A DNA stretch of 63,595 nt from Escherichia phage vB_EcoS_HdSG1, in the sequence record MK373795.1, one strand, 5' to 3'. The notes beneath the pieces were generated by a model. It made no database searches, was not told where the DNA came from, and worked only from the letters and a program-made list of their open reading frames with translations. Of this stretch, positions 1 through 3,443 are shown piece after piece (position 1 is the stretch's first letter; each line of letters starts with the position of its first letter). The translations under genes were made by a program, and so were the position numbers.

Positions 1-680
1 TTTATAAAGGGGTCTCGTAGGGGTCGTCAGTAGACAACTCAAAAACAAAAAATCTTTATACAATTTATATAAATACACACATACACACATTTTTTACCTT
101 ACTTTTCATGCACTTACCTCCTTTCATTTCGTATATTAAGCGTTAATACATGAGCAATATGACATATATTTGTTGCGCAACGACTGTGTGTTTTCTAACC
201 AAACGAAAGATTACTTTATATACGTCCGCGCGTCTAACACAAAAGAAAAGTAGATTGCAAGCAATTTTTGCTGAGGTAACTCTCGAAGTGAAAGCGATTT
301 GCGAGTTTGAATTTTTGTAGCCCGAAAACGATTCTATTTTATGGTATAAATGTCGGATTTTTCGGGCAAAGCCGGCTTTTCGGTGAGGTTGGGTGGCTGG
401 GATCGGGGTAACGGGTAGCCCATAAAGCGAAAATAGCCGCGAAAACGGGGCACGCAGCGCGATTAAATGGTTGGATCAGTGTAAGGGTGGCGGTGAGGGC
501 GAAAATGCCGCAAAATCGCGTACAGGGAAGCAGGGAGTGGATCGCTGTAAGGGCGTATAAGGCGACTAAATTGGAGTCTATGGTAATGTACGGAAGAAGG
601 ATTCAGGTTCTTAGGGTGCGAATGGTGGAGCTATGGGTGAGGAATATGTGGTCAGCAGGGTGGCGCGGGAGGTTATGCAG

Positions 681-721
681 GTACAAAAACGAAAGCGCCC
701 CGTTGGACTTCAACAGGGCGC
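681..721 (-). terminator. Rho-independent terminator of the terminal-repeat operon
   Basis: GCGCCC (695..700) / GGGCGC (716..721) stem; minus-strand transcript continues into a U-rich run (plus-strand acaaaaacgaaa at 683..694); just downstream of the CDS ending at 745. Confidence 0.55.
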
Positions 722-744
722 GGATTGTATAATGCAGTTAGAAG

Positions 745-993
745 TTATTTACAAGTTAATAGTACCGCCCAGGTATTATCTGGAAGCGTACCAACTCCGA
801 GTATCTTAAGCTGAAGCGACTTGTTCTGCATGTTGTAGTTGTCCAGTAACTCCTGGGCCGCGGCAGCGGCGTTCGCTTCACCGTTCAGGTTGTAGTCGTT
901 TGCAGTTATTGCACACATACCGAGACCGACCGCTTTGAAGCGCATACCTTTGGATTGAGTCGGTGCTAGTGCTTTGACATGGATAGCGTTCAT
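745..993 (-). CDS. hypothetical protein (terminal-repeat operon)
   Basis: 82-aa ORF, last gene of co-oriented leftward array; no recognisable motif. Confidence 0.6.
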   Translation of the reverse strand: MNAIHVKALAPTQSKGMRFKAVGLGMCAITANDYNLNGEANAAAAAQELLDNYNMQNKSLQLKILGVGTLPDNTWAVLLTCK

Positions 994-1022
994 ATTATTT
1001 ATCTCCGTTACAATTTGAAAGG

Positions 1023-1286
1023 TTAGCAGTTTTTTAACAGGTTGATGAAGCCCACCAGCGTGGACGCGGTTGCAACCAGGCGGCCCATAGTATGCAATTC
1101 CGCGTGAACTTTACCGTCGTCAAATACAGTTAAATAAACGTTAAGACCATTGCAACGGACGCGATATTTGCGCGAGTTATTACCGAAAGTTTCTAGCTCT
1201 GCGGTGATAGTCGCAAGATTAGCTATACGTTTGCCGATAATGCGGCGAGTGATAGTGGACTGGTTTAATACTGTAGACATAATCAT
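1023..1286 (-). CDS. hypothetical small protein, ITxRIIGKR-motif paralog A
   Basis: 87-aa ORF; RBS AGAGGAA; N-terminal STITRRIIGKRIANL...AEL aligns with SQITKRIIGKRLYQL...AEK of CDS 2583..2888. Confidence 0.65.
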   Translation of the reverse strand: MIMSTVLNQSTITRRIIGKRIANLATITAELETFGNNSRKYRVRCNGLNVYLTVFDDGKVHAELHTMGRLVATASTLVGFINLLKNC

Positions 1287-1311
1287 TTCCTCTGTTAACT
1301 ATGCGAAGTGC

Positions 1312-1340
1312 ATATTATTGCCCACTGTTACTATGGGCAA
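1312..1340 (-). promoter_or_regulatory. sigma70-like promoter overlapping a palindromic motif
   Basis: Minus strand reads TTGCCC, 17-nt spacer, TAATAT, about 25 nt upstream of the 1286 start; overlaps palindrome ATTGCCCA-N9-TGGGCAAT at 1317..1342. Confidence 0.4.
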
Positions 1341-1348
1341 TGTATATG

Positions 1349-1513
1349 TCACTCAGCGGACACATATTCTAACGCTTCTGATAGTGTAGCGAAGTGACCA
1401 TCACTCACCAGATTAATAGCGTACTCAAGTTCATCTCGGGTCAGGTTGCGAAACTTGTTACGGATGTGATAGCAACGACCGCGATAAATAAGCTGGAAAT
1501 AGTTGCGTTCCAT
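1349..1513 (-). CDS. hypothetical protein (54 aa)
   Basis: Internal ATG of track ORF 1349..1669 chosen at 1513 because of RBS AAGGGGA and no overlap with upstream gene. Confidence 0.5.
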   Translation of the reverse strand: MERNYFQLIYRGRCYHIRNKFRNLTRDELEYAINLVSDGHFATLSEALEYVSAE

Positions 1514-1523
1514 AATTATCCCC

Positions 1524-1769
1524 TTATGCAACGATGAACGCGTAACCGCTTTGATCCGGGAGTTCACCACCGGCAACAATCTCAAATTCAACACCCGCTC
1601 TAGCGTTGAACTTTTTGATAAGCTCTTCCGCTGCGGCGCGGTGGTTGCCGTAAACACCCAAATCGTCACGCCACGTGATAGTCAAGGAGCCGTTCCAGCC
1701 TGTTGCTTTTACGCGCGGGTTACGGGTGGCAGTTGGGTTAACGAATTTGGTGATGATAGCTTGAGCCAT
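1524..1769 (-). CDS. hypothetical protein (81 aa)
   Basis: ORF with RBS GGAGTAATTATC before ATG at 1769. Confidence 0.65.
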   Translation of the reverse strand: MAQAIITKFVNPTATRNPRVKATGWNGSLTITWRDDLGVYGNHRAAAEELIKKFNARAGVEFEIVAGGELPDQSGYAFIVA

Positions 1770-1774
1770 GATAA

Positions 1775-1960
1775 TTACTCCGGTAAAATTACAGTGACGT
1801 TAATATTTGCAAGGCGAGCGCACTCGCGGAAACCTTTTACATAAGCATCCATTTCGTCATAGGATGCGAAAGTTGCGTCCGGGACTGGTCCGTTGTTAAT
1901 ATTCACGCAATATTCGTGTTCGTCCAGGTCAACCCAGCAATTCAGAACGATAGTTTCCAT
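1775..1960 (-). CDS. hypothetical protein (61 aa)
   Basis: ATG at 1960 preceded by GGGGGG; the track start at 1993 is a TTG; stop of upstream tiny ORF lies 1 nt before this ATG. Confidence 0.55.
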   Translation of the reverse strand: METIVLNCWVDLDEHEYCVNINNGPVPDATFASYDEMDAYVKGFRECARLANINVTVILPE

Positions 1961-1961
1961 A

Positions 1962-2036
1962 TTATTTGCCCCCCGTATAGTAAAGACCCGCAACTATTGG
2001 AGCTCCGAACACTAAGAAAGCTAATAAGTAGAACAT
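1962..2036 (-). CDS. tiny hydrophobic peptide (24 aa, MFYLLAFLVFGAPIVAGLYYTGGK)
   Basis: Hand-translated; RBS AAGGGGG 9 nt upstream; starts 2 nt after stop of 2039..2506 and ends 1 nt before next ATG; below the track length cutoff. Confidence 0.45.
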   Translation of the reverse strand: MFYLLAFLVFGAPIVAGLYYTGGK

Positions 2037-2038
2037 AA

Positions 2039-2506
2039 TTAGTTACCCCCTTTATTGTTGAGCCCGTTGAATTTACGCCATGCGTAGAATTCAATCGTTG
2101 CATTATTAATATTCCAACCATTAGCTTTCGCAAGGTCACGCACGTTACCAATAGTTGGCACACTATCAGGTAACATATTATCCAGGGCATTCCAAACGTC
2201 TGCACATTTACCTTTAATTGGGCGGCGGACCCCGTTGCGCGTTTTACCTTTGGCGGGAGCGACCGGAGCTTGTTGTGTGGTCACTTCCACGACAGTCGCT
2301 TTATCAGCTTCCACCAGATCGTTAGCTGCCTTATTAACGGCGCTTTCGCTGAACCAGTAGCGACCACCGTCTTCCATAGGTTCCTGGTGAATAAAGCTAT
2401 TTGCTGTCGCTGTGTCTACGTCCAGAACCTTTTTCAAGGCACGGCGAGCGTTAGACATGTTGGTAAAAAAGCGAGCATCTTTTGCTACGCGAGTGATAGT
2501 AACCAT
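2039..2506 (-). CDS. hypothetical protein (155 aa)
   Basis: ORF in operon; start taken at MVTITRV (ATG 2506, GGAG upstream); alternative ATG at 2521. Confidence 0.65.
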   Translation of the reverse strand: MVTITRVAKDARFFTNMSNARRALKKVLDVDTATANSFIHQEPMEDGGRYWFSESAVNKAANDLVEADKATVVEVTTQQAPVAPAKGKTRNGVRRPIKGKCADVWNALDNMLPDSVPTIGNVRDLAKANGWNINNATIEFYAWRKFNGLNNKGGN

Positions 2507-2547
2507 TGTGAATATCTCCATGTTGTTCTAGCGGATTGCTAGTGGGA

Positions 2548-2569
2548 GCCCACTGTTACAATGGGCAAC
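2548..2569. promoter_or_regulatory. palindromic motif GCCCACTGTTACAATGGGCAA (second copy, operator-like)
   Basis: Near-identical to 1317..1342; intergenic, immediately upstream of the 2506 start. Confidence 0.4.
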
Positions 2570-2582
2570 CATTAGCACGCTA

Positions 2583-2888
2583 TTATTGTTGAATAGCTTT
2601 ATCTATCATTGCGATGAAGCAGAACACAGACCAAAGGCTATTCGCTTGGCATACTGCGCGACCATACATTACGCTATAAGAGCTGACAGTGCCGTCCTCG
2701 TTAATGCGAATATATAACGCGGTGCTGGAATACTTTTCGTTGCCCGGGAGCATTACCAGATACTCATCATAATCCCAATCCCCGCTGACTTTTTCCGCTG
2801 TAAGGCCCAGCTGATACAGGCGCTTGCCAATAATGCGCTTAGTAATTTGAGATTGGGACATGGAACGCGGTAAGTAGATAATGGACAT
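2583..2888 (-). CDS. hypothetical small protein, ITxRIIGKR-motif paralog B
   Basis: Start at internal ATG 2888 (MSIIYLPRS) with RBS AAGGGAGA; first gene of the repeat operon; paralog of 1023..1286. Confidence 0.65.
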   Translation of the reverse strand: MSIIYLPRSMSQSQITKRIIGKRLYQLGLTAEKVSGDWDYDEYLVMLPGNEKYSSTALYIRINEDGTVSSYSVMYGRAVCQANSLWSVFCFIAMIDKAIQQ

Positions 2889-2963
2889 AATGCAATCTCC
2901 CTTCGGGTGAGGCGGGCGCGGAACCCGTGTCCCGCTTAAAAACCCCCTTAACCCTACACAGTT

Positions 2964-2992
2964 ATAGTATGACAACGGGGTATCAGATGCAA
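2964..2992 (-). promoter_or_regulatory. sigma70-like promoter of the terminal-repeat operon
   Basis: Minus strand TTGCAT (2987..2992), 17-nt spacer, TACTAT (2964..2969), about 75 nt upstream of the 2888 start. Confidence 0.4.
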
Positions 2993-3071
2993 CTATTATC
3001 TGCATTATTTTAGAACTTTTTTTAGTTGTGTTTCATAATAATAACATCCGGGACTACACGGTAGATGGTGT

Positions 3072-3150
3072 GCCGGAAATACCAGGTAGCGCGAGCGTGC
3101 CGAAAATACCAGGTAACAGCACGCGCCGAACATACCAGGTAGCACATACA
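3072..3150. repeat. Three tandem 26-27-bp direct repeats (iteron-like), core ATACCAGGTA
   Basis: GCCG-rAAATACCAGGTA units begin at 3072, 3099, 3125; cores at 3079, 3105, 3132. Confidence 0.7.
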
Positions 3151-3443
3151 TAGACAGCACATAGTGGGCAGGTGGATAGTAACAGATGCAATTATACTGG
3201 ACGGTACAGTATAGTCATGTAATAGATAACATACTAATCAAATAAAAAATAATAACGCGTGTGACAATAAACAACGTTATAGTAGAGCGTGCAACAGTCA
3301 CATGACGTAACAATCACCTCACTGACGATCACTGGACGTTATAGTAACGCCGCGGGGCGGCTCTTAGATCTCTGCCAAGGATTCATCGTTTGTAGATTAT
3401 CTCGTCACTAGACACTTTATATCCTCACCTCACCTGCCCTATA

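Follow-up and report, generated by a model that had tools for sequence, protein, structure and literature searches.

Phage T5 is a siphovirus with a non-permuted chromosome, a multi-kilobase terminal repeat that carries small pre-early genes, two-step DNA transfer, and single-strand nicks. SPO1 has a terminal redundancy of ~13 kb with a host-takeover module, and Listeria phage A511 one of ~3.1 kb. The terminal repeat of T7, a phage that encodes its own RNA polymerase, is 160 bp long and non-coding. Here we describe what is very probably a direct terminal repeat (DTR) of Escherichia phage vB_EcoS_HdSG1 (hereafter HdSG1; record MK373795.1), a gene-bearing segment of 3.36 kb that stands at both ends of the DNA analyzed. 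The genome has been published (Korf et al. 2019, PMC6563267) and is that of a 9g-like Nonagvirus of the Queuovirinae. By "the window" we mean the whole stretch that was analyzed, 63,595 nucleotides (nt) in length.

The T5 repeats are ~10.2 kb (PMC8594841), three times the length of the repeat in HdSG1. As in HdSG1, they belong to a siphovirus and are long repeats of small early genes, with two copies per virion. When the seven proteins encoded in the HdSG1 repeat were compared through Pfam, NCBIfam, and PHROGs, no homologue of A1, A2, Dmp, or another T5 pre-early protein was found among them. SPO1 and the Herelleviridae share with HdSG1 their long repeats, clustered small early genes, and host-type promoters, but they are myoviruses of Gram-positive hosts with different terminases and no homology. 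T7 is similar in having sequence-defined ends, one copy at the concatemer junction that needs duplication, and short repeat arrays by the ends, whereas its repeat is 20 times shorter than the HdSG1 DTR and carries no genes. In form, the HdSG1 DTR is closest to the long repeats of T5 and of the SPO1 type, without homology to them.

Within the Queuovirinae, the termini of phage iggy were mapped with Nanopore reads and give a DTR of 1,091 bp (PMC10484667), one third of the HdSG1 length. The large terminase subunit (TerL) of Pa-V, a relative of iggy, is 62% identical to that of HdSG1, but the repeat boundaries of iggy have no nucleotide similarity to those described here. In phage 9g, a physical end has been placed at position 28,243, the same nucleotide as position 3363 of the window, and a DTR was inferred (PMC4276943). 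Unlike the situation in HdSG1, the homologous 9g segment is 3,084 bp long and is present only once in the record.

The repeat and its boundaries

Positions 1-3363 are identical to positions 60233-63595 with 0 mismatches, as the original prediction stated, and 3363 is the length of the longest prefix of the whole window that matches a suffix. A match of 3,363 bp is long enough to exclude a chance origin. The sequence from 3364 onward and the sequence ending at 60232 are mutually unrelated, so the DTR cannot grow inwards, and the suggestion made earlier that the true repeat could be longer is not supported, because outside data (see below) put the physical ends at these same boundaries. Across its length, the DTR is 90-95% identical to the corresponding region of 11 named genomes of coliphages and Salmonella phages, which places it in Nonagvirus, and TerL of HdSG1 is 100% identical to that of 9g. 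In 11 of 13 related Nonagvirus records, the region is found as a single mid-record copy. The same sequence is present in the same direction at both record ends only in HdSG1 and its sister phage HdK1 (MK373794.1), an arrangement that stems from how the records were built. The HdSG1 depositors placed the contig ends where most reads "ended abruptly" (PMC6563267), and the text of that paper does not mention a DTR of 9g-like phages. The elements concerned are as follows (a slash marks a terminus here and below).

1-3363, no strand: left copy of the DTR, identical to 60233-63595, with full-length homology to either HdK1 end and to a region present once in each of 11 other Nonagvirus genomes
60233-63595, no strand: right copy of the DTR, in which all left-copy features recur at +60232
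3334-3384, no strand: right cut-site region, ...ACGTTATAGTAACGCCGCGGGGCGGCTC / TTAGATCTCTGCCAAGGATTC, with a 5-bp G+C hairpin at 3349-3361 that ends 2 nt short of the terminus
60107-60241, no strand: left cut-site region, with ATTTATAAAG three times, at 60107, 60136, and 60232, the third copy straddling the left boundary

The right boundary has been seen experimentally in another phage, by another laboratory, and on another sequencing platform. In phage 9g, position 28,243 is the start of 91 reads and the end of 23 (Kulikov et al. 2014, PMC4276943); from this, the authors deduced a physical end and a DTR, the size of which they left open, and they set promoters beside that end (PMC4276943). 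The BLAST match of window positions 1-3363 ends at exactly this nucleotide, so that 3363 aligns to 9g position 28,243, and the common junction reads ...GGCGGCTC/TTAGATC.... Between about -30 and +21, the junction does not vary among 13 phages. Beyond +21, HdK1 diverges from the others; homology stops at that point, and to the right of the boundary there is an HNH endonuclease gene in HdK1 and a 95-amino acid (aa) membrane-protein gene (3495-3782) in HdSG1. A 16-mer, ACTGGACG(T/G)TA(T/C)AGTA, is confined to two sites, 3196 and 3331. When folded as single strands, the two boundaries are not stabler than shuffled sequence (z = -0.2 and -0.8). Distant BLASTN searches with both boundary regions returned Nonagvirus only, so the cut sites are not traceable into Seuratvirus or other Queuovirinae.

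At the left boundary, the three copies of ATTTATAAAG are all that the window contains, and TTTATAAA is perfectly palindromic. Conservation is 97% across the 13 phages over the 50 nt that follow the left terminus. Four data sets (record and contig ends) place the left terminus within this genome-unique motif array, namely at DTR coordinate 1 in HdSG1, 4 in HdK1, 4 in a contig from the European Nucleotide Archive (ENA; ERZ22666012), and 7 in a Logan contig (ERR1301420 contig 316). This end is not reported in the 9g paper.

Two further sequence features lie near the left end. The 8-mer TCGTCAGT is found at 24-31 (24 nt from the left terminus) and recurs as the reverse complement at 3321-3328 (35-42 nt from the right terminus); therefore, the virion ends share a short sequence in inverted orientation. 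Two 50-nt windows would share an 8-mer by chance with a probability of ~0.03, and a further copy of the reverse complement is present at 31868. A very A+T-rich stretch at 60049-60073, immediately beyond the left boundary, contains GTATTGCAA twice, 16 nt apart; it is iteron-like and adjoins the ATTTATAAAG array.

The sister phage HdK1 is of the same genus and from the same study as HdSG1. It also has a DTR at both record ends, with the same seven genes and terminator as HdSG1, and the two DTRs are ~95% identical. The HdK1 repeat is exact over 3,367 bp and shares its right end with HdSG1, but it begins with ATAAAGGGG..., 3 nt further in. The unique parts of the two genomes are 60,692 bp (HdK1) and 60,232 bp (HdSG1), a difference of 460 bp, and the totals are 64,059 and 63,595 bp, a difference of 464 bp.

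Independent assemblies were examined in a census of contigs from Logan and ENA, chosen because they carry homologues of two DTR genes; the contig ends were mapped onto the DTR (~55 true ends). Four of these ends fall no more than 7 nt from a boundary, versus 0.2-0.4 expected by chance. Contig 316 of Logan ERR1301420 (3,084 bp) spans from coordinate 3363 to coordinate 7 and thus represents the 9g-type DTR alone; contig 273 of Logan ERR1301370 begins exactly at 3363; and the ENA contig, from Copenhagen sewage, terminates at coordinate 4, matching the left end of HdK1. The 9g hot spot, two Logan contigs that start at 3363, and the invariant -30 to +21 interval all fix the right terminus. About 50 of the ~55 ends lie elsewhere, the low-coverage metagenome contigs being uninformative. 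A search of IMG/VR with the boundary motif found seven contigs, all of which read through the boundary mid-contig and are uninformative on ends.

Overall, four lines of evidence (the 9g hot spot, the lengths of HdK1 and HdSG1, the 3,084-bp contig, and the near-invariant boundaries) support the original prediction of a gene-bearing DTR that arises from terminase cuts at defined ends and not from headful packaging. We have high confidence that this is a genuine, non-permuted DTR of the Nonagvirus virion chromosome with sequence-defined ends. The DTR is real and already public, being contained in the HdSG1 and HdK1 records and inferred in the 9g paper, and it is not new as such. A literature search found no paper that gives its size or describes its content.

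An operon of seven orphan genes

The DTR operon is one minus-strand transcription unit of seven genes, set between conserved non-coding stretches of 694 and 475 bp. Coding capacity was tested by counting variable sites per codon position (given below as positions 1/2/3) across 13 phages. All seven genes have a Shine-Dalgarno-like sequence and an excess of third-position variation. In the other open reading frames (ORFs) of the DTR, and likewise in 1-694 and 2890-3363, variation is even across codon positions, indicating that they are non-coding, and the plus-strand ORFs were rejected as genes on this basis. Of the eight ORFs initially attributed to the repeat, seven conserved minus-strand genes are thus what holds. 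All encode orphan proteins.

745-993, minus strand: g1, 82 aa, phrog_3199, paralogue of g4; 38/25/58
1023-1286, minus strand: g2, 87 aa, phrog_13865, paralogue of g7; 9/8/28
1349-1513, minus strand: g3, 54 aa, phrog_18706, annotated in all relatives; 7/1/9
1524-1769, minus strand: g4, 81 aa, phrog_3199, identical to HdSG1_00091; 31/26/66
1775-1960, minus strand: g5, 61 aa, phrog_5461; 6/8/19
2039-2521, minus strand: g6, 160 aa (in relatives 155 to 159 aa, with an internal ATG as start), phrog_17772, two domains; 13/16/59
2583-2888, minus strand: g7, 101 aa, phrog_13865, first gene of the operon; 48/28/58

An N-terminal extension of g7 (2889-3005) was not retained. The main reason is that in 12 of 13 related records the gene begins at the counterpart of position 2888; the variation in the extension itself (10/9/15) involves too few sites to decide. 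The g1 and g4 proteins share ~30% identity with 13 invariant columns, and those of g2 and g7 share 34% identity (BLASTP, E=2e-9). Given these two diverged paralogue pairs, four of the seven operon genes derive from two ancient duplications. The distance between the conserved boundaries ranges from 2,963 to 3,972 bp across relatives because genes have been gained and lost. There is an extra 88-aa gene in BRET, PD328, and SP8; g2 is missing in 9g and SE1; and an HNH homing endonuclease is located inside the repeat region of JenP1.

None of the seven proteins has a Pfam or NCBIfam match, and the PHROG families to which they belong are all of unknown function. The g6 protein has 267 homologues, none of them named. 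Its AlphaFold2 (AF2) model (predicted local distance difference test [pLDDT] 75) has two domains, the C-terminal one a three-helix domain, and the best Foldseek match in the PDB is not significant (E=0.57). The AF2 model of g4 (pLDDT 85) consists of three strands, a long helix, and two strands. Both folds are predicted with reasonable confidence, but for neither model did Foldseek find a PDB match with E<0.1. A homeodomain-like resemblance of the g6 C terminus is weak, and we do not treat it as evidence. Two notes in the 9g record were also set aside because they lack Pfam support. The first, "TetR family transcription regulator," is attached to the g4 homologue (9g positions 2734-2979), and the g4 model, which is beta-rich with a single long helix, does not have a TetR fold. 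The second, "potential sigma factor," concerns 9g positions 5089-5454 (window homologue 3868-4233).

The signals that may govern expression of the operon, and the non-coding segment beyond it, are the following.

3191-3218, minus strand: predicted sigma-70-like promoter, the best candidate for the operon, ATGACT-16-TATAAT, matching 10/12 consensus positions, with an A+T-rich stretch before it
3069-3144 (= 63301-63376), no strand: three 23-nt direct repeats, 26-27 nt apart, in the g7 leader; core ATACCAGGTA
2548-2568, minus strand: second copy (copy 2) of the 21-nt hairpin element, located 27 nt ahead of g6; folding z = -2.1
1320-1340, minus strand: 21-nt hairpin element, copy 1, GCCCACTGTTACTATGGGCAA, 34 nt upstream of g2; z = -4.0
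695-721, minus strand: intrinsic terminator 24 nt past the stop of the last gene; its 11-bp stem contains 8 G-C pairs and leads into TTTCGTTTTT
1-694 (= 60233-60926), no strand: non-coding segment from the left terminus to the operon terminator, G-rich on the plus strand

The predicted promoter lies ~150-170 nt from the right terminus and is directed inwards. In the 9g record, a BPROM promoter is annotated 10-25 nt further upstream on the same strand. The leader between the predicted promoter and g7 is ~300 nt long. It includes the three 23-nt repeats, whose core 10-mer ATACCAGGTA is found nowhere else in the genome; these could be operators or other protein-binding sites. Unusual early/late regulation near the leader region was suspected by the 9g authors (PMC4276943). 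The two hairpin copies are 95% alike (consensus GCCCACTGTTAC[T/A]ATGGGCAA), and copy 1 is within the most conserved 50-nt block of the DTR (99%). They could be elements of RNA processing, stability, or translational control. The terminator is a strong one, is the sole terminator-like site in positions 1-4000, and is also annotated in HdK1 and SP8.

The operon is thus complete within each DTR copy, and owing to the repeat it has two different settings. The right copy precedes the early (replication) region at 34216-59937, which likewise lies on the minus strand. The left copy is directed to the left terminus, and the plus-strand late genes start just past the DTR.

The non-coding flanks are conserved as well as the genes are. 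Segment 1-694 has 88-97% identity across the 13 phages, codon-position variation of 81/77/71, and a GC skew of +0.25 (versus ~0 in the coding part). A plus-strand GC skew had seemed at odds with minus-strand genes, but the difficulty is dispelled by the fact that the skew comes wholly from 1-694, the coding part being neutral. An Rfam scan of positions 1-3600 gave no match at E<=1. Together with 59940-60232, the right-hand copy of this segment makes up a ~1-kb gene-free block upstream of the main early genes, and this block could hold an origin, early promoters, or packaging signals.

Terminase and a model for packaging

The terminase genes are located to the right of the left DTR copy.

7944-10119, plus strand: terminase genes, with a putative small subunit (7944-8552) and a large subunit (8521-10119; Pfam Terminase_6N)

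Outside the genus, the neighbors of TerL are Seuratvirus (67%; termini unreported) and iggy-like phages (62%, via Pa-V), and more distant relatives include Yuavirus-type phages described as permuted. Given that iggy-like relatives have DTRs and distant relatives are permuted, terminase relatedness does not decide the packaging type.

The repeat, its boundaries with their conservation and independent support, and the coding status and layout of the operon are shown by the data, which support a non-permuted genome with ends made by two sequence-specific cuts. How the segment is duplicated, which end goes into the cell first, when the genes are expressed, and what the proteins do is what we infer. 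In replicating concatemers, the 3.36-kb segment would occur once between genome units, and terminase would cut at two sequence-defined sites that flank this single copy. The right cut would fall 2 nt past the conserved G+C hairpin (...GGCGGCTC/TTAG) and the left cut inside the last of the three ATTTATAAAG motifs. The segment would presumably be duplicated by strand-displacement synthesis from staggered nicks, as in the T7 proposal, or alternate genomes would be lost. The packaged molecule would then have the segment at both ends, starting with TTTATAAAGG (or ATAAAGG) on the left and finishing with GGCGGCTC on the right, and the redundancy of the DTR permits recombination into concatemers. We favor entry of the right end first, because a promoter at this end is directed into the genome, toward the early genes. 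Entry in this order was also proposed by the 9g authors (PMC4276943).

The operon would be read by host RNA polymerase and may well act as an immediate-early cassette of the host-takeover type, similar to those in the T5 and SPO1 repeats and carried on the first DNA to enter the cell. This functional reading is less certain than the DTR itself and has about an even chance of being right. A more specific version, in which a T5-like "first DNA in," autonomous seven-protein operon is combined with an undescribed mode of terminase recognition and asymmetric ends (sharp on the right, ragged on the left at 1/4/7 in the ATTTATAAAG array), is tentative and, in our judgment, rather doubtful. Such an asymmetry would also account for the lone hot spot in the 9g data.

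Points against and alternative explanations

Several considerations weigh against the DTR and the function proposed for it. The exactness of the two copies is true by construction and hence is no independent evidence, because assembly merges the copies of a terminal repeat into one, which is then entered twice by the depositor. HdK1 and HdSG1 are from one laboratory. The left end varies by 3-6 nt between data sets and may be ragged or method-dependent. Most metagenome contigs pass through both boundaries, which is expected for a collapsed repeat and for a permuted genome alike. The relatives of TerL include Mesyanzhinovviridae described as circularly permuted (PMC11946847). The 9g study gave one hot spot only, that at the right boundary, and a coverage of ~1.5x across the whole early half rather than 2x over 3 kb (PMC4276943). 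Finally, no function can be assigned to any of the seven proteins from Pfam, NCBIfam, PHROGs, or, for g4 and g6, the fold search.

The 9g coverage pattern merits comment in its own right. The ~1.5x early half corresponds to 34-63.6 kb of the window and steps sharply at the terminus (PMC4276943), and a 3-kb DTR alone does not explain it. Uneven dG+ modification or sub-genomic DNA might.

The alternative that fares best accepts the DTR and targets only the functional part of the proposal. According to this, the cassette consists of ordinary early accessory genes that happen to lie between the cut sites, and their duplication has no functional consequence. The lack of any function or homology for the proteins is in its favor, as is the variable content between the boundaries (2,963 to 3,972 bp, with genes gained or lost and the HNH gene in JenP1). 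However, the operon has its own promoter and terminator within the DTR in every phage, the promoter is ~150 nt from the terminus and points inward, as in the early regions of T7 and T5, and the flanking non-coding parts are strongly conserved. We see it as possible but not likely.

Headful packaging is a far weaker contender. Here, packaging would start at a pac site at 3363 and proceed leftwards for ~105.6% of the genome, and the DTR would be the ~3.4-kb redundancy of a dominant first headful, sharp at one end and set at the other by capsid capacity alone. This fits the single 9g hot spot, which has one orientation and no clean 2x block (PMC4276943), and the description of some phages with related large terminases as permuted. 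Headful cutting, however, implies a constant packaged length, a redundancy that shrinks as the genome grows, and imprecise distal ends, with cuts that scatter over hundreds of bases, whereas the left end here falls within a 7-nt span in four data sets and in a motif array that is unique in the genome. In HdK1 and HdSG1, near-equal repeats go with unequal totals, the boundaries being kept despite the 464-bp difference, and the 9g-type (3,084-bp) and 3,363-bp repeats have the same boundaries. If these boundaries apply genus-wide, the packaged lengths would be ~59.8 to 64.7 kb, which is no constant headful. We consider this explanation very unlikely.

Least credible is an artefact, in which a permuted or short-ended genome acquired its duplication from an over-assembled circular contig or by copying from HdK1: the copies are identical by construction, the region is present only once in 11 of 13 related records, and PhageTerm failed to orient a related Seuratvirus genome, but short-read overlap artefacts are k-mer sized rather than 3.4 kb and have no reason to end at conserved sites, the right boundary coincides with an independent read pile-up from another laboratory and platform (PMC4276943), unrelated assemblies break at both boundaries, and the 3-nt offset between the HdSG1 and HdK1 left ends argues against copying by homology.

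Other observations in the window

Two observations are unrelated to the DTR. ARAGORN reports a tRNA-Ala(TGC) at 34619-34692 (plus strand), within a 657-aa minus-strand ORF (34216-36189) near the switch in transcription direction and GC skew; it is probably spurious. The sequence CCCTTTTTTT, the slippery motif reported for the -2 frameshift of the 9g tail assembly chaperone, occurs once (18886-18895), at the end of ORF 18471-18899 and before ORF 18944-19282.

Implications for Nonagvirus genomes

The DTR leaves the current understanding of phage packaging unchanged. Its consequences are for the genus. For the 11 of 13 Nonagvirus records that lack the DTR, the stated genome sizes are probably 3-4 kb short, and arbitrary starts obscure where the chromosome really ends; with the boundary sequences described above, these records could be re-oriented. 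The Nonagvirus group is otherwise known for 7-deazaguanine DNA modification, and a small, conserved operon of orphan genes with its own promoter is a good place in which to seek host-takeover or anti-defence functions.

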